Assembly: GCA_015494465.1 (NCBI GenBank)
Contig: WGBD01000001.1
Span: 25,030 to 89,029, forward strand
DNA: 64,000 bases
Direction: 5' to 3'
Source: Candidatus Omnitrophota bacterium
GTDB lineage: Bacteria > Omnitrophota > Gorgyraeia > S143-82
Shown here in pieces: positions 8,875 to 44,460 of the stretch; positions within the stretch are counted from its first letter, which is position 1, and each line of letters begins with the position of its first letter. The notes under the pieces are model-generated. The model was given only the letters and a program-made list of their open reading frames with translations, ran no database searches and was not told where the DNA came from. Made by a program: the position numbers and the translations under genes.

Positions 8875-9621
8875 TCAGGTCAACACTTGGACCTCTCCAT
8901 CCAGAATAGCGATGGTGTGTTCGTAATGAGCACTCTTTTTACCGTCTAAGGTCCTAACGGTCCAGCCGTCCTCGGGATCTATACGGACCTTCCAAGTGCC
9001 TGCGTTTACCATTGGCTCTATCGCCAGAACCATCCCGGGGGATATGCGCTCACCCCTTCCCGGCTGTCCGTAATTTGGCACCATCGGGGGCTCGTGGATG
9101 TCAAACCCTACACCGTGTCCTACAAAATCCCTCACCACCGAGAAACCTGCCTTCTCAACCGTGCGCTGTATCGTGTAGGATATGTCCCCTATGTGGGTGG
9201 CAGTCTCGGCCTTCTTTATCGCCCGCTGAAGGGCCAAGAGGGTGGTCTCCATCAACCGCCTATCCTCTTCATTCACCTCACCGATGGCAAAGGTCCAGGC
9301 GGAATCCGCATAATACCCGCCTTTCTCTACCCCAACGTCTATGCCAACTATATCTGATTCCCTCAACACCTTCTTCTCCGAAGGTATCCCGTGAACCACC
9401 TCCTCGTTGACGGATATGCAACTCGCCGAGGGATATCCCCTATACCCTTTAAAGGCAGGTCTGGCCCCGTGATCCCTTATGTAGGTCTCTATAAACTTAT
9501 CTATCTCCTTAGTGGACACTCCGGGGACCAGTTTCTCCGGGAGTATTTCAAAGAGCGAATGTATTATCCGGCCCGCCTCTGCAATGCCCTCGATATCCTC
9601 GGGCCCTTTCAAGCGTATCAT
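8875..9621 (-). CDS. map: methionine aminopeptidase type I
   Basis: 248 aa; metal-ligand context DIVGIDVG, HGVGFDIHE; located between adk and infA as in many spc/alpha clusters. Confidence 0.9.
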   Translation of the reverse strand: MIRLKGPEDIEGIAEAGRIIHSLFEILPEKLVPGVSTKEIDKFIETYIRDHGARPAFKGYRGYPSASCISVNEEVVHGIPSEKKVLRESDIVGIDVGVEKGGYYADSAWTFAIGEVNEEDRRLMETTLLALQRAIKKAETATHIGDISYTIQRTVEKAGFSVVRDFVGHGVGFDIHEPPMVPNYGQPGRGERISPGMVLAIEPMVNAGTWKVRIDPEDGWTVRTLDGKKSAHYEHTIAILDGEVQVLT

Positions 9622-10271
9622 AGGGAGTTCAATATGTTCTCTATCTGCTTGAAGGTCTCTTCTGCGGAGACCTCACTGTTCACCTCAAAGAGGATACCTT
9701 TCTGCCTATAGAAATCCACTAAAGGTGCGGTCTGCTGGTTGTAGACCTCAAACCTCTGCTTGATGACCTCTTCTTTGTCGTCCTCGCGCTGGTATAGCTC
9801 CCCTCCGCAGATGTCACAGCGCATGTCGTTCTTCGGGGGCTTGTTTACCCTGTGATATATCGCCCCGCAGTTCCGACATATCAGGCGACCGGTCAACCTC
9901 ATCCTCACCACTTCCCAAGAGACTTTGAGGTAGATAACTGCGGTCAGTTCCCTGCCTATCTCCTTCAGGAGTTCATCCAATGCCTCCGCTTGGGCGACGG
10001 TGCGGGGAAAACCGTCCAACAGAAATCCCTTCTCCTTCGGCAGGGCCAACAGTTTCTCCCTTATCATACCGATGATCACCTCGTCGGGGACCAGTTCGCC
10101 CTTCTCCACGTATTCCTTTGCCTTCTTCCCCAACTCGCTCCCTGCCTTCATCTCCGCCCGCAAGATATCCCCGGTGGAGAGGTGCTCCAATCCGAGGCGC
10201 TCTCTCAATATCTCTGCCTGCGTGCCCTTTCCCGCCCCGGGTGGTCCCAATAGAACGAGATTCGCCGTCAT
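9618..10271 (-). CDS. adk: adenylate kinase (Cys4 zinc-lid type)
   Basis: P-loop GPPGAGKGTQ; lid CRNCGAIYH...CDICGGEL; ORF track start 10436 is an artefactual extension overlapping secY, ATG at 10271 gives a normal 217 aa. Confidence 0.9.
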   Translation of the reverse strand: MTANLVLLGPPGAGKGTQAEILRERLGLEHLSTGDILRAEMKAGSELGKKAKEYVEKGELVPDEVIIGMIREKLLALPKEKGFLLDGFPRTVAQAEALDELLKEIGRELTAVIYLKVSWEVVRMRLTGRLICRNCGAIYHRVNKPPKNDMRCDICGGELYQREDDKEEVIKQRFEVYNQQTAPLVDFYRQKGILFEVNSEVSAEETFKQIENILNSL

Positions 10272-11599
10272 CCGTACCTCCTCCCCCTTATCCTTCCCGA
10301 ACGGATAAATCCATCGTAGTGTCTCATAAGCAGGTGCGACTCTATCTGTCTTATCGTGTCCAGCAATACGCCGACGACTATCAATATACCCGTCCCTCCG
10401 AAGAACTGGGAGACCAGATAGGGGATGTTCAACCACCGGCTCAACAACATCGGTATCACCGCTATGATGGCCAAGAATATCGCACCAAGGGTGGTAACCT
10501 TTATCATAACGTCGTAAAGGTACTCTGCGGTGGGCATGCCCGGTCTTATGCCGGGGATGAATCCACCGTACTTTTTCAGGTTATCCGCGATGTCCAAGGG
10601 ACGGAATATTATCTGGGTGTAAAAGAAGGTAAAGAAGATTATCAGGGCCGAGTAAACCAATATGTAGGTTAGATCTGCGGTCCTTATCCAGTTGGCTACC
10701 TTTTCTATCCCAAACCGCAAACCCATACTGGCAAGGGTTGCGGGAAAGAGCAATACCGACTGGGCAAAGATTATGGGCATAACGCTGGCCTGATTGACCC
10801 GCAGGGGTATGTAGGAGGTTTGGCCACCGACAACCCGGGTTCCGCTTATCTTTCGGGCGTATTGGACCGGTATCTTGCGCTGTCCCTGAGTAATTGCGGT
10901 AACAAACCAGACCACCGCAAACAGCATTACTATCAGGAACACGACCACCTCCGGGCGGATCTGTCCGGTCTTGGCCAGGGTGTACAATTGGTAGATCGCA
11001 CCGGGCATACGGGAAAGGATACCTGCGGTAATAATCAGGGATATGCCGTTGCCTATCCCGTATTCCTGTATCTGTTCACCCAACCACATAATAAACGCGG
11101 TGCCGGTCGTAAGGGATATCATGGTCATTATCCTGAAGCCCCACCCCGGGAACAGGACCACCGCCTCGCCCCCTATACCGTTCTCGAGGTAAAGGGCGAT
11201 GAAGTAGGCCTGAAGGAGACACAATAGGATGGTCCCGTAGCGGGTGTACTGGAGTATCTGCCTATAACCGGTGGCTCCCTCCTTGGAGAGTTGTTCCAGC
11301 TTTGGTATCACCGGGGTGAGCAGTTGCAGTATTATGGACACCGATATGTAGGGCATTATACCCAAGGCAAAGATGGTCGCCCTCCGGAGTGCGCCTCCGG
11401 AGAAGAGGTTCATCAGCCCGAACAGACCACCACCCGCCTGCTTGGCGAGGTTGTCGAATATCTGGGCCAGTTTCAGACTGTCTATACCGGGGATCGGAAT
11501 GTAGGCACCTATCCTGTAGACGACCAACAGGCCCAAGGTGATGAGGAGTTTCTTTCGCAGGTCCTCTATCTTGAATATGTTGACGAAGGTCTTTAACAT
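10268..11599 (-). CDS. secY: preprotein translocase subunit SecY
   Basis: 443 aa polytopic membrane protein between rplO and adk. Confidence 0.95.
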   Translation of the reverse strand: MLKTFVNIFKIEDLRKKLLITLGLLVVYRIGAYIPIPGIDSLKLAQIFDNLAKQAGGGLFGLMNLFSGGALRRATIFALGIMPYISVSIILQLLTPVIPKLEQLSKEGATGYRQILQYTRYGTILLCLLQAYFIALYLENGIGGEAVVLFPGWGFRIMTMISLTTGTAFIMWLGEQIQEYGIGNGISLIITAGILSRMPGAIYQLYTLAKTGQIRPEVVVFLIVMLFAVVWFVTAITQGQRKIPVQYARKISGTRVVGGQTSYIPLRVNQASVMPIIFAQSVLLFPATLASMGLRFGIEKVANWIRTADLTYILVYSALIIFFTFFYTQIIFRPLDIADNLKKYGGFIPGIRPGMPTAEYLYDVMIKVTTLGAIFLAIIAVIPMLLSRWLNIPYLVSQFFGGTGILIVVGVLLDTIRQIESHLLMRHYDGFIRSGRIRGRRYG

Positions 11600-13932: not shown

Positions 13933-14118
13933 TTACCAGGAAGCGTGCCTTACGCCGGGAATTTCTCCCTTCCAAGCCATCTCACGAAAACATATCCTGC
14001 ACAATCCAAACCGGCTCAGGTAGGCCCTTGGCCGTCCGCATATATGACAACGATTGTACTTCCTCACCTTGAATTTCGGCTCCCTCTTCCACTTCTCTAT
14101 CATTGCCTTCTTGGCCAT
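13933..14118 (-). CDS. rpsZ: 30S ribosomal protein S14 type Z (zinc-binding)
   Basis: 61 aa with [23 protein letters not shown] Cys4 motif. Confidence 0.95.
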
Positions 14119-14696: not shown

Positions 14697-15026
14697 TTAA
14701 ACGATCGCTCCACAGGACCTGCATATCCTGACCTTCTTACCATCCGACTCCACGCGAAATCCGACCCTAACACCACGCTTGCACTCGGGGCAGTAGAGCA
14801 TAACATTGGAGATGTCCATAGGCATCTCCACCTCTGTTATCCCGCCGGGCAACTCCTCGCTTATCCTTCTCACATGCTTCTTTGCCTTGTTCACGCCTTC
14901 CACGAGGACCTTGCCCTTGTCCCTGAGGACGCGCAGGACGCGCCCCATCTTGCCCTTGTCCTTGCCGGTTATAACCACGACCGTGTCGTCTTTCTTTATC
15001 TTCTTGAACTTCAACATCCCTATCAC
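14697..15026 (-). CDS. rplX: 50S ribosomal protein L24
   Basis: 109 aa; KOW motif region ...[16 protein letters not shown]... Confidence 0.95.
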
Positions 15027-19433: not shown

Positions 19434-20060
19434 TTAAGACTTCTTGGCCTTGCGCACAAACACCATAGACTTGATGTGTCCCGGCACTGAACCCTTTATC
19501 ACCAACACATTGTTATCCTTGTCTATCCTAACAACCTTAAGATTCTGGACGGTCACCCTCGCGTTGCCCATGTGTCCAGGCAGGTGCCTGCCCTTTATCA
19601 CCCGTCCCGGGAAGGTGCCCGGTCCCAAAGAACCTATCACCCGATGGGACATGGAACCGTGGGTGGCAGGCCCACCGGACCAGCCCCAGCGCTTCATACC
19701 TCCTGCAAAGCCCCGCCCTTTGGACTTGCCAACCACATCCACCTTGGCAACGCCCTCAAAGAGCTCTATCCCTATCTCCTGACCGACCGAGGGCAACTCC
19801 TCACCCTTGGCCAGGACCTCGCGTATGTACCTCTTGGGCGGGATCTCCAGCTTTTTGAATATGCCCAGAACCGGCTTGGTGAGCTTATTCTCTTTTACGT
19901 CAACGAAGGCAATCTGAACGTTCTTCTTGCCAGAAGGAAATTCTTTTACGCCAAGAACGACTGCAGGATATATCTCTATAACCGTAACCGGGACGAGTCT
20001 GCCATCCTCTTCGAATATCTGGGTCATCCCCAGTTTTCTGCCAAACAAACCTTCTATCAT
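19434..20060 (-). CDS. rplC: 50S ribosomal protein L3
   Basis: L3 N-terminus (M)IEGLFGRKLGMTQIF; ATG at about 20060 is 9 nt downstream of a GGAGG Shine-Dalgarno; ORF track TTG start at 20069. Confidence 0.92.
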   Translation of the reverse strand: MIEGLFGRKLGMTQIFEEDGRLVPVTVIEIYPAVVLGVKEFPSGKKNVQIAFVDVKENKLTKPVLGIFKKLEIPPKRYIREVLAKGEELPSVGQEIGIELFEGVAKVDVVGKSKGRGFAGGMKRWGWSGGPATHGSMSHRVIGSLGPGTFPGRVIKGRHLPGHMGNARVTVQNLKVVRIDKDNNVLVIKGSVPGHIKSMVFVRKAKKS

Positions 20061-20094
20061 ATCGGTCAAGCCTCCTTTCGTCCAGCGCAGTTCG

Positions 20095-20184: not shown

Positions 20185-20493
20185 TTACATCTTTATCTCT
20201 ACATCCACCCCTGCGGGCAGATTGAGTTTCTTCAAGGCATCTATCGTCTTGGCAGTCGGCCCCACTATCTCCAGGAGGCGCTTGTGAGTGCGTATCTCAA
20301 ACTGCTCCCTGGACTTCTTGTCTATCACCGGAGACCTCAACACGGTGTAGATCTCCCTCTTCGTGGGAAGAGGGATAGGACCAACCACCTTGGCACCCGT
20401 GCGCTGGGCAGATGCCACTATCTCTTTCACCGACCGATCGAGTATCCTGTGCTCGTACGACTTCAGCTTTATCCGTATTCTCTGTTCCGCCAT
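20185..20493 (-). CDS. rpsJ: 30S ribosomal protein S10
   Basis: 102 aa; [19 protein letters not shown]... typical S10. Confidence 0.95.
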
Positions 20494-20524
20494 GGCAAAG
20501 AACGACCGCCTCTCGAATCGCGAA

Positions 20525-21727
20525 CTACTCTATTATCTCGGTTACGACACCCTTTCCGATGGTCTTACCACCCTCACGGATAGCAAACCTCAACTCCTTC
20601 TCCAGAGCAACCGGTGCAATCAACTCCACCTCAAAGGTGACGTTGTCGCCCGGCATCACCATCTCAACGCCCTCGGGCAGTTTTATGGTCCCGGTAACGT
20701 CGGTGGTGCGGAAGTAGAACTGAGGCCTGTATCCGGTGAAGAACGGCTTGTGCCTTCCTCCTTCCTCCTTGCTCAGGACGTAGACCTGGGCCCTGAACTT
20801 GGTGTGAGGGGTAATGCTACCCGGAGCAGCGAGGACCATTCCTCTCTTGAGGTCCTTCTTCTCAACGCCCCTCAACAACAGACCAACGTTGTCTCCTGCC
20901 TGACCCTCGTCAAGGATCTTGCGGAACATCTCTATACCGGTAACCACGGTCTTACCGATCTTGTTGTTGAAACCGACGACCTCAACCTCATCGCCGACCT
21001 TTATCTTACCCCTCTCTATCCTACCGGTAGCGACGGTTCCACGACCGGAGATGGAGAAGACATCCTCAACCGCCATAAGGAACGGCTTGTCTATCTCCCT
21101 GACCGGATCGGGTATGTACTCATCTACCGCCTTCATCAACTCTATTATCGGCTTGCAGTTGGGACAGTCGTCCTTTCCGCAACCGCACTCCATAGCTTTC
21201 AGAGCGCTTCCCCTGATTATGGGGACCTCGTCGCCGGGATACTCGTACTTGCTCAGGAGCTCCCTTATCTCCATCTCGACCAGATCCAACAACTCCGGAT
21301 CGTCCACCTGATCTACCTTGTTCATAAAGACGACGATCGCAGGAACATTCACCTGTCTGGCCAAGAGGATGTGCTCTCTGGTCTGGGGCATCGGTCCATC
21401 GGTAGCAGCGACCACCAATATGGCACCATCCATCTGGGCTGCACCGGTAATCATGTTCTTTATGTAGTCAGCGTGCCCTGGACAGTCTATGTGGGCGTAG
21501 TGCCTCTTGTCGGTCTGGTACTCCACGTGGGCGATGTTTATGGTAACACCCCTCTGCTTCTCCTCGGGAGCGTTATCTATCTGATCGTATTCCTTTGCCT
21601 CAGCCATACCCCTCTGGGCAAGGACCTTGGTTATCGCCGAAGTCAACGTGGTCTTACCGTGGTCAACGTGACCTATGGTTCCGATGTTGACGTGCGGTTT
21701 CGTTCTTACGAACTTCTCTTTTGCCAT
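20525..21727 (-). CDS. tuf: elongation factor Tu (with unusual CxCx4CxxC insertion)
   Basis: 400 aa; [23 protein letters not shown]-domain motifs; domains II and III conserved; extra [12 protein letters not shown] loop in domain I. Confidence 0.97.
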
Positions 21728-21747
21728 CTCCTACACCTCCTGCTGTT

Positions 21748-23835
21748 TTATGCGCTCTTACTTGCTGTCCTCTTTCCGACGATCTTCTCGGCTATATTAG
21801 GCGGAACCTCCGCATAATAAGAAGGTTCCATTGTATATGTTCCACGGCCCTGTGTCAAGGACCTCAAGGCATTGGCGTAATCAAAGGTCTCCGCCAAGGG
21901 GATATCGCCCCTTATCACCTTCAAATGTCCCCTCTGTCCCAGAGAGGTTATCTTACACCTACGGCTGTTAAGATCGCCTATCACCGCACCCATATATTCC
22001 TCAGGAACGGTTACCTCTATGTCCATAATGGGCTCCAAGAGGATGAGCCCTGCCCTTTTGGCCCCGTCGCTAAGGGCAAGCGCTGCAGCCAGTTTAAAGG
22101 CGAACTCCGACGAATCCACCTCGTGGAAAGATCCGTCCACAAGCGTGACCTTTATGTCGGTAAGGGGATAACCTGCCAAGACCCCGTTCTGGGCCTCGGA
22201 GAGGATTCCCTCTTTTACCGCGGGGATGTATTCTTTGGGTATTACGCCTCCCTTTATCTTGTCCACGAACTCTATCCCTGATCCCCTTTCACCGGGTTCT
22301 ATCTCTATGATAACATGGCCGTACTGCCCCCTACCTCCGGACTGCTGTATGTACTTACCTTCACTGCGGACCGGCTTTCGGATGGTCTCGCGGTAGGCGA
22401 CCTCCGGAGTACCTACATTGGCATCCACGTTGAATTCCCGGCGCATACGGTCAACGATTATCTCCAGATGGAGCTGGCCCATGCCGGAGATAAGCGTCTG
22501 GCCGGTCTCGGGGTTATACCTGACCCGGAAGGTCGGGTCCTCTTCTTCAAATTTCTTGAGAGCCATGGCCAGTTTGTCCTGATCCGCCTTGGTCTTGGGC
22601 TCTATGGAAAGGGATATGACCGGCTCGGGGAACTTCATGGATTCCAAGATAATCGGATATTCCTCGTCGCAGAGGGTATCACCGGTCTTGGTCTCCTTCA
22701 GGCCAACGAAGGCGACTATGTCGCCGGTAAATATCTCTTTCACTATCTCCTGACGGTTTGCGTGCATCCGCACTATCTTGGAGACCCTCTCCTTGGTGCG
22801 ACGGGTGGAGTTGTATATGTAAACACCGGAGGTGAGCTTCCCGGAATACACCCGCACATAGGTTAGTTTACCAACGTAAGGATCGGTCATTATCTTGAAG
22901 GCTAAGGCACAGAAGGGCGCCTCGTCCGAAGGTATTCTCTCCTCGTATTCCCCGGTCTTGGGATTCATCCCCTTCACTGCAGGTATATCTATTGGGGAAG
23001 GGAGGTAGTCGCAGATCGCATCCAACAGCAACTGCACACCCTTATTCTTGAGGGCGGTTCCGCATAGGACGGGGACGAACTTATTCTTTACCACTGTACG
23101 GCGGATGGCCTTCTTTATGTCTTCGGTGGTAATCTCCTCCTCTGCGAGGTACTTCTCCATTATCTCATCGTCTACCTCGCCCAACCTCTCTATCAGGTTC
23201 TCCCGCCACTTCTTGGCCTCCTCTATCATCTCCTCGGAGATGGGCAGTATCTCCATCTCCTTACCGAGGTCGTCCTTGTAGATGCGCATATTCCACTCCA
23301 CCAGATCCACTATCCCTTTAAAGGAATCCTCTTTACCTACGGGTAATTGTATAGGCGCTGCATGGGAGGCCAAGCGCTCCTTCATCTGATCCAAGACTGC
23401 AAAGAAGTCTGCACCCACGCGGTCCATCTTGTTGACGAAGGCGATGCGCGGGACATTGTACTTGTCCGCCTGGCGCCACACCGTCTCGGTCTGGGGCTGA
23501 ACCCCACCCACACCGCAGAACACGACCACCGCACCGTCGAGGACCTTCAAGGACCTCTCCACCTCAACGGTGAAGTCCACGTGGCCCGGAGTGTCTATGA
23601 TGTTTATCTGGCAGTCCTTCCACTTACAGCTTATACTTGCCGCGGTAATGGTTATTCCTCTTTCCCTTTCCTGGGCCATCCAGTCGGTAGTGGCGGTCCC
23701 TTCGTGGACCTCACCTATCTTGTGTATCCTTCCGGTATAAAAGAGGATTCTTTCCGTAGTGGTGGTCTTGCCCGCATCTATGTGGGCGATAATACCGATG
23801 TTGCGTATCTTATCCAAAGGTATCTCTCTCGGCAT
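21748..23835 (-). CDS. fusA: elongation factor G
   Basis: 695 aa; [23 protein letters not shown]; str operon position. Confidence 0.97.
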
Positions 23836-35516: not shown

Positions 35517-37304
35517 TCAATCTATCTTGAGCGTGGCTAAGAAGGCCTCTTGCGGGACCTGGACCTTGCCCATCATCTTCATCCGCTTCTTACCTTCCTT
35601 CTGTTTCTCCCAGAGCTTTCTTTTCCGGGTGATGTCCCCTCCATAACACTTGGCGGTCACATTCTTGGCCAAAGGTCGTATCTTCTCGCTGGCGATTATG
35701 CGCGAGCCTATCGCCGCCTGAACCGAGACCTCGAAGAGCTGGCGGGGGATCAACTCCTTCAACTTGCGCACCACTGCCTTGCCCCGCTCGTAGGCCTTCT
35801 CCCTTGGCACGAGGAAGGACAGGGCATCGGTTGGCTTGCGGTTGAGGAGGATGTCCATCTTGACCAGATCCACCTTTTCGTATCCGTCCAACTCGTAATC
35901 CAGAGAGGCGAATCCCCGAGAGACGGTCTTTAGTTTGTCGTAAAAGTCGGTGATTACCTCAGCCAATGGCAGGCGGAATATCAGCTCCAAGCGGTCATTG
36001 CCCAGATAATTCGTCTGGATGTGTCTGCCCCGCTTTTCCTTGCACAGGTTCATCACCGGCTCTATAAACGAGATAGGGATTATTATGTTTGCCCGGATGT
36101 AGGGCTCATAACTGGCCTCTACCTTCTCGGGTGGGGGCATCTGGGAGGGACTGCGCACCTCTATCTCCTTGCCATCAACCGTCCTGACCTTATACACCAC
36201 CGAAGGGGTGGTAAGGATGAGATCCAACCCGAATTCCCTCTCCAACCGCTCCTGGACTATCTCCATGTGGAGCATCCCTAAAAAGCCACAGCGAAAACCG
36301 AATCCGCAGGCAGTGGAGTTCTCGGGCTCGAACACGAAAGAGGCATCGTTCAGGGACAGTTTCTCCATGGCATCCCGCAGAGCAGGGAAGTCCGCGGGAT
36401 TCACCGGATAGACCCCGGCGAAGACCATTGGCGGGATCCTGCGGTAGCCGGGAAGGGGCCTATCCGTCGGTCTCTTCAGGTGGGTTATCGTATCACCCAC
36501 ATTGACCGAGCGGGGGTTCCTTATGTTGGCAAAGAGATAGCCTACCTCCCCCACCGTAAGGGAGTTAACCGCCACCCTCTCCGGAGTGAGCACCCCTATC
36601 CCCTCCACCTCAAAGGAATCTCCAGTTGCCATAAACTTTATCCTGTCCCCCACCGCCACCGTCCCGTCAAAGACGCGGAAATAGACGATTACCCCCTTGT
36701 ACTGGTCGTAATGGGAATCGAACACCAGGACCCGCAACGGGGCGTCCTTATCGCCTTGGGGTGGGGGTATCTCCTTTACGATGCGCTCCAGTATCTCCTC
36801 GATACCTATGCCCTCCTTGGCAGAGGCCAGTATTATCTCCTCGGATGAGAAGCCCAGTGCCTCCACCTGAGGCAGGACTACGTCCAGATCCGCACTGGGC
36901 AGGTCTATCTTGTTCAGGACCGGGATGACCTTCAACCCCTGCTTGCGGGCCAAGTGGAGATTGGCAATCGTCTGGGCCTCCACCCCTTGAGAGGCATCCA
37001 CAAGGAGCAAGGCCCCCTCGCAGGAGGCAAGGGCCTTGGACACCTCGTAGGAGAAGTCCACGTGCCCGGGGGTATCTATGAGGTTTAATACATATTCCTT
37101 GCCATCCTTGGAGCGATAATTAAGCCGTACCGCGGAGGACTTGATAGTTATCCCCCTCTCCCGCTCCAGTTCCATGTCGTCCAGCAACTGTTCGTGGAAC
37201 CTGCGCTCGTCCACCGCCCCGCAGAACTTTATGATCTGATCCGCAAGGGTGGACTTTCCGTGGTCTATATGGGCTATTATGCAGAAATTTCGTATGTTCT
37301 CCAT
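35517..37304 (-). CDS. lepA: elongation factor 4 (LepA)
   Basis: 595 aa; [29 protein letters not shown], LepA-specific C-terminal domain. Confidence 0.95.
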   Translation of the reverse strand: MENIRNFCIIAHIDHGKSTLADQIIKFCGAVDERRFHEQLLDDMELERERGITIKSSAVRLNYRSKDGKEYVLNLIDTPGHVDFSYEVSKALASCEGALLLVDASQGVEAQTIANLHLARKQGLKVIPVLNKIDLPSADLDVVLPQVEALGFSSEEIILASAKEGIGIEEILERIVKEIPPPQGDKDAPLRVLVFDSHYDQYKGVIVYFRVFDGTVAVGDRIKFMATGDSFEVEGIGVLTPERVAVNSLTVGEVGYLFANIRNPRSVNVGDTITHLKRPTDRPLPGYRRIPPMVFAGVYPVNPADFPALRDAMEKLSLNDASFVFEPENSTACGFGFRCGFLGMLHMEIVQERLEREFGLDLILTTPSVVYKVRTVDGKEIEVRSPSQMPPPEKVEASYEPYIRANIIIPISFIEPVMNLCKEKRGRHIQTNYLGNDRLELIFRLPLAEVITDFYDKLKTVSRGFASLDYELDGYEKVDLVKMDILLNRKPTDALSFLVPREKAYERGKAVVRKLKELIPRQLFEVSVQAAIGSRIIASEKIRPLAKNVTAKCYGGDITRKRKLWEKQKEGKKRMKMMGKVQVPQEAFLATLKID

Positions 37305-43910: not shown

Positions 43911-44270
43911 CTACAACTCCTTTATCAACTTGCTAGCCACTTCCGCCGAGATATTCCCCTTATCCACCTGATTGAGGATGTACCGGATCTCACCAGCCCT
44001 ATGCTCCTCCACCAGATCCCTGAGGCGGGCAATCACCCTGTCCAGACGCAGGCGTACGGTGGGATAACTTACCCCCAACTTCCGGGCCAGATCCTTTAGT
44101 TTCCCATCGCAGAGCAGGAACTCCTCTATCAGGCGCTGGTCCTCGTAGGGCAACCTGCTCAAGGCGCTGAGGGAGAACAGACCCGAGATCTCCGTCCCGC
44201 AGTCCTGACACCCGACCGCGCTCACCCTCACCTTACCACCGCAGAACGGGCACCTGTCCATCAACCTCAT
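43911..44270 (-). CDS. DUF2089-like zinc-ribbon/HTH protein with C-terminal SHOCT-like motif
   Basis: CPFCGGKVRVSAVGCQDCG zinc ribbon, HTH-like LARKLGVSYPTVRLRLDR, C-terminal ILNQVDKGNISAEVASKLIKEL; strong SD GGTGAGGAG and TTGACT-N16-TATATT upstream. Confidence 0.6.
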   Translation of the reverse strand: MRLMDRCPFCGGKVRVSAVGCQDCGTEISGLFSLSALSRLPYEDQRLIEEFLLCDGKLKDLARKLGVSYPTVRLRLDRVIARLRDLVEEHRAGEIRYILNQVDKGNISAEVASKLIKEL

Positions 44271-44460
44271 CTCTCCTCACCTCATCTGGAAATATAACAA
44301 AAATTAAACCAAAGTCAACAAATTGATTGAAAAAATGCAACAAAATTGACGAATTAATTTAACAATATTGAATGGCTACTCCATTCCCCCTCCCATCCAC
44401 CCCTCAGCAAGGCTCTCAATCCTAACTCTGGTCCTATATATGTGTTAAAATTAATCCGTA
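44271..44460. promoter_or_regulatory. AT-rich divergent promoter region between DUF2089 gene (minus) and comM-rpoN (plus)
   Basis: 190 nt far more AT-rich than surroundings; direct repeats CAACAAATTGA / CAACAAAATTGA / AATATTGAA; minus-strand TTGACT-N16-TATATT plus SD GGTGAGGAG; plus-strand TAAAAT 10 nt before comM ATG. Confidence 0.5.

Follow-up and report, generated by a model that had tools for sequence, protein, structure and literature searches.

Why should an elongation factor Tu (EF-Tu) carry four cysteines, spaced like the ligands of a zinc knuckle, within its GTPase domain? Few bacterial proteins are as abundant or as well studied as EF-Tu, and what textbooks show of it has been drawn entirely from forms without these cysteines (E. 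coli, Thermus). The question is raised by a stretch of 64,000 nucleotides from the genome of a Candidatus Omnitrophota bacterium (contig WGBD01000001.1, positions 25,030 to 89,029), referred to here as the window. Its tuf gene (20525..21727, minus strand, 400 amino acids plus stop) encodes the sequence C181-G-C183-G-K-D-D-C188-P-N-C191 (21155..21187, minus strand). We propose that this loop is a structural Zn(Cys)4 knuckle that marks a "C+" form of EF-Tu, a reading that we regard as probable, though clearly short of certain. A metal site is the best reading because the four cysteines are invariant and occur all or none, because the loop is modelled with confidence and because zinc sites with the spacings CxC-x4-C and CPxC are known. 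We infer that the metal is zinc, that the four thiolates hold a single ion and that the role of the site is mainly structural. The preliminary description of this locus had thought of a metal-binding site, perhaps with a regulatory purpose; the metal site agrees with our analysis, while a regulatory purpose is not shown.

The four-cysteine loop and its predicted structure

Translation of the tuf reading frame returns exactly the motif sequence, the residue numbers (181, 183, 188 and 191) and the interval that had been given in the preliminary description. On the minus strand, the putative ligands are encoded by TGC for Cys181 (21185..21187), TGC for Cys183 (21179..21181), TGT for Cys188 (21164..21166) and TGC for Cys191 (21155..21157). 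Five residues upstream of the first cysteine lies S174-A175-L176 (21200..21208, minus strand), the G5 guanine-recognition motif of EF-Tu; G173, S174 and A175 are invariant in the alignments. The whole protein has five cysteines, four of them in the motif, and the fifth is the universal C82 of DCPGH. Five cysteines placed at random in 400 residues would bring four of them within 11 residues with a probability of about 2e-4, and the pattern C.C.{4}C..C has a single occurrence across the six reading frames of the window. A chance origin of the cluster is not plausible.

The structural setting was taken from an AF2 model built with a 134-sequence alignment, which has a mean pLDDT of 86 overall, of 94 for residues 181-190 and of 97 for residues 191-200. 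DSSP assigns a helix to residues 175-181, coil to 182-191 and a helix to 192-204, with no strand in 182-191. In the model, the knuckle site begins five residues past the G5 SAL, at the N-terminus of the last G-domain helix (residues 192-204; 21116..21154, minus strand; pLDDT 97), which leads to the domain II linker. The motif had been described as lying in the loop preceding the linker between domains I and II; as modelled, it precedes the last domain I helix and not the linker itself. The further term "insertion" holds in comparison to the E. coli/Bacillus-type loop, which is five residues shorter, and to the Thermotoga-like loop, which is shorter by one. It does not hold for the Thermus loop, which is about five residues longer than that of the window protein, a difference implied by the chain ranges in the table of PDB matches. 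The Thermus loop is 10 residues longer than that of E. coli, and this stretch, after the G5 helix and before the last helix of the G domain, is known as a hot spot of length variation.

How could four cysteines serve at this place? They would form a small, surface-exposed Zn(Cys)4 knuckle of the G domain, taking the place of the hydrogen-bonded or hydrophobic loop of Cys-free EF-Tus. The predicted knuckle may link the short helix after G5 (SAL, 174-176), at its end, with the beginning of the last helix of the G domain (192-204) and cap the N-terminus of the latter. Such an arrangement would make the G5 region more rigid, and likewise the base of the helix that runs towards domain II. The face on which the site would lie is not known to be among the main surfaces by which EF-Tu contacts EF-Ts, aminoacyl-tRNA or the GTPase centre of the ribosome.

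Conservation of the motif was followed at several levels. Alignment against homologs, which the preliminary description had suggested as a check, bears out the pattern: among 134 sequences with 74-97% identity to the window EF-Tu, the four cysteines are invariant in all 132 that bear the motif. Within the motif, positions 186, 187, 189 and 190 are variable, and G182, G184 and K185 are strongly conserved. A collection of 217 homologs, from which the loop could be extracted in 215, contains the full motif in 211 cases and no ligand cysteine at all in the other 4. TGC and TGT are both in use at each of the four sites among the 120 listed genome matches described below, therefore selection acts on the amino acid. 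Conserved cysteines in two close pairs, CxC and CxxC, and an all-or-none occurrence of the ligands among orthologs are features expected of a structural Zn(Cys)4 site, and both are found here. The CPxC of the window protein is a classical knuckle half.

A broader view comes from 76 loops of 50%-identity cluster representatives, a set that consists mostly of fusions and fragments and gives a rough unbiased sample of loop types. Fifty of these loops contain no cysteine, 23 contain one, 2 contain two, none contains three and a single one, from a 44%-identical EF-Tu, contains four. In the single-Cys loops inspected, the cysteine stands in a "KC-I" context and aligns to position 193, which is no proposed ligand. 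A fifth cysteine at this position, right after the motif (C-x-C-I; window 21149..21151), was seen in 7 of the 120 listed genome matches, and the position-193 cysteine is also the sole loop cysteine of a separate, otherwise Cys-free loop family (...PEYKCIWELM...). Three unusual EF-Tu entries are probably assembly or gene-calling artefacts, namely the E. coli-like P0220 (423 amino acids), with an internal duplication of about residues 130 to 200, and the over-long P0010 (475 amino acids) and P0012 (491 amino acids).

Distribution and inheritance of the motif

One genome per bacterial or archaeal species was scanned with a degenerate DNA pattern of about 41 bits that combines G-S-A, four cysteines at motif spacing and a downstream D-x3-P-x-P. 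At least 120 species-level genomes match this pattern, and all 120 matches listed translate to EF-Tu with CxCx4CxxC, the presence of the cysteines being demanded by the pattern itself. Judged by record title, the 120 matches listed carry about 22 phylum-level labels. Among the matches listed, Bacillota account for 36 (with Moorella mulderi, Sporomusa ovata, Caloramator, Desulforudis, Sulfobacillus harzensis, Syntrophomonas, Pelotomaculum and Symbiobacterium), "Deltaproteobacteria"/Desulfobacterota-type bacteria for 21, Omnitrophota for 8 and Planctomycetota for 7 (including Kuenenia, Scalindua and Jettenia). Patescibacteria/Saccharibacteria and Actinomycetota (Thermoleophilia) follow with 5 each, Armatimonadota with 4, Nitrospirota with 3, and Chloroflexota and Binatota with 2 each. 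Single matches among those listed come from Aquificota, Nitrospinota, Acidobacteriota, Gemmatimonadota, Elusimicrobiota, Spirochaetota, Bacteroidota, WOR-3, Coatesbacteria and Ratteibacteria. The remaining 17 comprise 2 Proteobacteria-labelled metagenome-assembled genomes (MAGs), 2 "Candidatus Bruticola", 12 unclassified bacteria and 1 archaeon-labelled contig. The latter (L096; JACQXV010000210.1, 2568 bp), filed as "Candidatus Woesearchaeota archaeon", encodes a bacterial EF-Tu with an anammox-like (Kuenenia/Jettenia) loop and flanks and is probably a binning error.

Database searches with the protein gave the same picture. CxCx4CxxC is present in 116 of the 120 best database homologs of the window EF-Tu, and a profile search seeded with diverse members added carriers in Thermodesulfatator indicus, Leptospirillum group IV, Nitrospirota and Desulfuromonadales; T. 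indicus bears the motif in both tuf copies. The Cys4 motif is a widespread form of EF-Tu and the normal state of tuf in the lineage of the window, and no anomaly of this genome. The rarity that the preliminary description had implied does not agree with a motif found in at least 120 species-level genomes. That description had also reasoned that a motif both widespread and already characterised would remove the point of interest; the site is indeed widespread, but in the literature searched it is not characterised. Full-text literature outside subscription-only papers, searched also for the literal motif, does not describe any Cys4 or zinc site for the EF-Tu of bacteria. The site is apparently unstudied, though a prior mention is possible.

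Two further statements in the preliminary description concern the Cys-free forms. The absence of cysteines here from the E. coli, Thermus and Thermotoga proteins was stated correctly: no solved EF-Tu structure has the motif, in a PDB set that covers E. coli, Thermus, Mycobacterium, Pseudomonas, Acinetobacter, Synechococcus, mitochondrial and reconstructed ancestral proteins, and the Thermotoga-like loop is Cys-free. The suggestion of a thermostabilising role, in contrast, gains nothing from the distribution. Many carriers are bacteria of groundwater or sediment or anammox organisms, which we take to be mesophilic, and EF-Tus of the Thermus and Thermotoga type lack the motif. Thermophily was rejected as an explanation on these grounds.

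Is the motif one mobile allele, or was it inherited with the gene? When the loop is left out of the comparison, identity among the motif-bearing EF-Tus of the genome scan goes down to 54%, and in 55 of 71 cases the nearest neighbour bears the matching taxon label, where about 12 would be expected by chance. The motif therefore goes with EF-Tu backbones typical of each lineage, which speaks against a single mobile or recently transferred allele. The commonest version across phyla among the 120 listed genome matches is ECGCGK[RK][DE]C[EQ]WCG.IWEL, and it aligns with the Cys-free loop EGD.EW..KI.EL of the E. coli/Bacillus type, including the conserved tryptophan. The E-W and K-I-x-E-L residues coincide in this alignment, therefore the Cys4 and the Cys-free loops are homologous. 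The two loop types differ by five residues (CGCGK) and by the replacement of Cys188 and Cys191.

The same difference separates the window protein from its closest Cys-free relatives. The segment CGCGK (residues 181-185, 15 nucleotides, 21173..21187, minus strand) is missing from the orthologous tuf of these relatives (L121, L122), both in the protein alignment and at the DNA level. Two such relatives, P0011 and P0013, are 395 amino acids long, have the loop ALE-----GDEENKKAILEL and carry Glu in place of Cys188 and Lys in place of Cys191. Their tuf stands in the context rpoC-rpsL-rpsG-fusA-tuf-rpsJ-rplC. Outside the loop they are 93% (P0011) and 91% (P0013) identical to the window EF-Tu, and no other motif-bearing homolog exceeds 85% there. 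The flanking proteins are close as well, with 82-84% identity for EF-G and 93% for S10. In a neighbour-joining tree, P0011 and P0013 are sister to the window group, inside a Cys-bearing Omnitrophota-like clade. Compared to the window gene, their tuf shows a 15-nucleotide deletion together with C188E and C191K; this is a recent loss of the motif in an orthologous gene and not a paralog. A general purge of zinc sites in this lineage was considered and rejected for S14, which is still of the zinc type. As part of the preferred reading, and with the same measure of confidence, it seems probable that Cys4 EF-Tu is old and widely inherited, and that some lineages lost it through a short deletion and substitution of the cysteines left. 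The C+/C- ribosomal proteins and the adenylate kinase lid, with and without zinc, have evolved after the same pattern.

Weighing the proposed zinc knuckle and its alternatives

Several points weigh against a structural zinc knuckle of old descent. There is no template for it: none of the EF-Tus among the PDB matches has the motif, and a PDB search with the 20-residue motif gave two insignificant matches (E = 0.11 and 8.3) and no structure with CxCx4CxxC. Four ligands within 11 residues make an unusually compact site. The site is evidently dispensable, as the Cys-free sister lineage functions without it, and this lineage nevertheless retains its zinc-type S14. Thermotogae are rich in C+ ribosomal proteins (PMC3087516), yet the Thermotoga-like EF-Tu loop is Cys-free. 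That the motif would be ancestral is argued from its distribution and from one polarised loss, not from a rooted reconstruction.

The thiolates might instead act as a switch. Oxidants or O2 would oxidise them, release the zinc, destabilise or inactivate EF-Tu and brake translation in what are mostly anaerobic organisms. In its chemistry this would be comparable to the zinc switch of Hsp33, whose zinc centre has the same CXC and CXXC halves. Many of the named carriers are strict anaerobes (Moorella, Sporomusa, Desulforudis, Syntrophomonas, Pelotomaculum, the anammox genera and Thermodesulfatator). EF-Tu is a redox target via Cys82 in cyanobacteria, and PDB entries 8YLY and 8YM3 are titled "EF-Tu in regulating photoinhibition". 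However, the motif is also carried by organisms believed to be aerobic or to live in acid mines (Sulfobacillus harzensis, Leptospirillum group IV) and by MAGs labelled Thermoleophilia, Gemmatimonadota, Binatota and Nitrospinota. No partner or regulatory element accompanies it, and any Zn(Cys)4 site can be oxidised without having such a function. We consider a redox or zinc-release switch unlikely for these reasons.

Zinc economy offers another explanation, in which the abundant EF-Tu would hold a large share of the zinc in the cell, zinc supply would decide whether a lineage keeps the site or loses it, and the structural role of the site would be secondary. This would fit the loss of the motif in a close relative and the taxonomic pattern of Cys-bearing EF-Tu, which parallels that of C+ ribosomal proteins. 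The latter are described as Zn reservoirs (PMC7873864) and as part of the zinc economy (PMC3087516). A reservoir is nevertheless improbable in our view, as no Cys-free tuf paralog lies within the window, both tuf copies of T. indicus have the motif and the lineage without the motif keeps its zinc-type S14. Less probable still is a different cofactor, either a rubredoxin-like Fe(Cys)4 centre or a small Fe-S cluster, which would render EF-Tu iron- or oxygen-responsive. The CPxC half resembles a rubredoxin knuckle and anaerobes are enriched among the carriers, but the first half is CxC and not CxxC, the spacing is unlike that of known 4Fe-4S and 2Fe-2S motifs, the motif occurs in taxa believed to be aerobic and iron would be a very costly addition to such an abundant protein. 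That the loop is a lineage-specific variant without any metal, possibly with disulfides, is hardly credible: the loop is the most variable part of the G domain in length and sequence and is dispensable in a close relative, but the four cysteines are invariant down to 54% identity outside the loop while their neighbours vary, they occur all or none, and stable disulfides are not expected in the reducing cytoplasm.

A structural Zn(Cys)4 knuckle remains the reading that we prefer, and it would have consequences beyond this locus. If zinc is bound, many bacteria invest roughly one Zn per EF-Tu, an amount that would rival the whole ribosomal zinc pool and bring EF-Tu into the zinc economy. An E. 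coli cell contains about 10^5 EF-Tu molecules and about 2x10^5 Zn atoms. Elongation in the carriers would, in addition, have a built-in oxidant-sensitive site, and the motif, by being there or not, would provide a simple marker beside those of the classical C+/C- ribosomal set. Reconstructed ancestral EF-Tus have reportedly served as a basis for inferring ancient growth temperatures. The reconstructed proteins in the PDB (5W75, 5W76, 6GFU, 6HTW and 6I8R) are without the Cys4 motif; if zinc is bound, these reconstructions and the inferences on thermostability miss a possibly ancestral metal site. A joint reading goes considerably further. A large share of bacteria, chiefly anaerobic and deep-branching, would possess a zinc EF-Tu as dominant zinc sink and thiol oxidant sensor, oxidation or zinc starvation would throttle translation, losses would go along with oxic or zinc-poor habitats, and the EF-Tu of the last bacterial common ancestor would have been zinc-bound. 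We regard this combination as speculative and rather unlikely.

The tuf locus and comparison with known zinc sites

The window protein is a bacterial elongation factor Tu by its architecture, its G motifs and its operon position. The assignment is based on the list of open reading frames (ORFs), PDB matches, Pfam domains and the AF2 model. Matches to PDB EF-Tu chains reach E values down to 1e-205 over residues 1-400, the Pfam domains PF00009, PF03144 and PF03143 (GTP_EFTU, D2 and D3) are present in the database homologs, and the model has TM values of 0.90-0.92 to EF-Tu in the GTP form (1EFT, 1EXM and 1OB2). The G motifs GHVDHGKT (P-loop), DCPGH, NKxD and SAL are all in the translation and are invariant in the alignments. 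The closest named homologs are from "Candidatus Omnitrophica/Omnitrophota", with 80-84% identity. According to the ORF list, tuf is flanked by fusA (21748..23835), rpsJ (20185..20493) and rplC (19434..20069) in the order fusA-tuf-rpsJ-rplC, all on the minus strand. This is the str/S10 operon position (rpsL-rpsG-fusA-tuf-rpsJ), and the order is identical in relatives. A second tuf or a Cys-free tuf paralog is not present within the 64-kb window. A region of weak similarity to the EF-Tu G domain at 36627..37289 (29% identity over 245 amino acids in tblastn) points to another translational-type GTPase and not to a second tuf. Antisense to the entire tuf runs an open frame of 484 codons (20363..21817, plus strand), which looks like a by-product of the tuf codon bias and not like a gene.

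Other Cys4-type sites are found in the window, where the adenylate kinase lid, S14, L36 and L33 retain zinc-type motifs. Adenylate kinase (9618..10300, minus strand), encoded between secY and map, has the zinc-type lid C187-RN-C190 ... C207-DI-C210 (CxxC-x16-CxxC). S14 (13933..14118, minus strand) is of the short 61-amino-acid type with CxxC...CxxC, and L36 (8443..8556, minus strand; CxxC...C...H) and L33 (35209..35376, minus strand; CTEC...CKHC) are, like S14, zinc (C+) forms. A protein of about 120 amino acids (43914..44276, minus strand) combines a zinc-ribbon-like N-terminal CPFC...CQDC with a helical C-terminal part. At its C-terminal end, uL24 (14697..15026, minus strand) carries CPEC-x18-CRSC, and the uL24 of a relative (L123, 16817-17143) has CSGC-x18-CKKC at the equivalent place; the B. 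subtilis protein has DPKT...AKKS at these positions. L24 does not appear in the C+/C- list of PMC3087516. It may be another zinc form outside that list.

How does the EF-Tu loop compare with metal sites that are already known? Membership in several classes was considered and rejected. A classical zinc ribbon has its pairs at least 10 residues apart; here they are 4 residues apart and no strand lies in 182-191, so that the site would be a short knuckle. A rubredoxin-type Fe(Cys)4 site (CxxCG ... CPxCG) does not fit a motif whose first pair is CxC and whose second, C[PEQA]xC, has K or G after it. The redox switch domain of Hsp33 is C-terminal and carries CXC-x(27-32)-CXXC, and an Hsp33-type redox zinc centre disagrees with the 4-residue spacing and with a motif inside a GTPase domain. 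In ROK-family proteins, the fourth zinc ligand is a distant histidine. The motif of this family is CxCGxxGCxE/D (PMC3553997); its first three ligands have the same C-x-C-x4-C spacing as in EF-Tu, and such a tight arrangement can bind one Zn. However, the ROK site belongs to an unrelated fold, that of sugar kinases or repressors, and lies beside the sugar-binding site, and the EF-Tu motif lacks G-C-x-E and sits in an EF-Tu fold, hence it is no member of the ROK class.

Closer in place or in kind are sites in GTPases and nucleotide-binding proteins. The Thermus loop and the Thermotoga-type EAPDDPNHEAYKP loop share their place with the Cys4 loop, behind the G5 helix and ahead of the final helix of the G domain, but have neither cysteines nor metal. 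Archaeal and eukaryotic IF2 gamma, another tRNA-carrying GTPase of the EF-Tu family, reportedly has a four-Cys zinc knuckle in its G domain; this knuckle differs in insertion point, spacing, factor and domain of life, and nothing indicates a common origin. Adenylate kinase is similar in a different way. Its LID holds a Cys4 zinc in Bacillus, other Gram-positives and Thermotoga and a hydrogen-bond network in E. coli. Like EF-Tu, it is a housekeeping nucleotide-binding protein with a lineage-variable Zn(Cys)4 site in a non-catalytic surface loop, and its zinc-free orthologs work. It differs in fold, location and spacing (CxxC-x16-CxxC), and its zinc has been shown experimentally, whereas that of EF-Tu is inferred.

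The most instructive comparison is with the ribosomal proteins S4, S14, S18, L28, L31, L32, L33 and L36, which are reported to exist in C+ and C- forms. Like EF-Tu, these are core translation proteins that occur with and without four cysteines, the cysteines are present all or none and losses recur within phyla. The sites themselves are different: the ribosomal ones are zinc ribbons, in which two CxxC knuckles on beta-hairpins stand 10-20 residues apart, whereas EF-Tu has an 11-residue CxC-x4-CxxC in a coil between helices. No sign of a Zur-controlled switch between C+ and C- paralogs was found for tuf in the window, which has a single copy, or in T. indicus, where both copies are of the Cys4 form. 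The dichotomy has been described (Chen, Roberts & Luthey-Schulten 2009, PMC3087516; introduction of PMC9976891), and the C+/C- lists given there do not contain EF-Tu. In table 2 of PMC3087516, the C+ forms are richest in Clostridia, "Deltaproteobacteria", Aquificae and Acidobacteria. The groups richest here in Cys-bearing EF-Tu, namely Clostridia-type Bacillota, "Deltaproteobacteria", Aquificota and Acidobacteriota, are the same as those richest in C+ ribosomal proteins. Thus, with a site that is apparently unstudied in this factor, Cys4 EF-Tu would join a known class, the lineage-variable structural zinc sites in proteins of translation.

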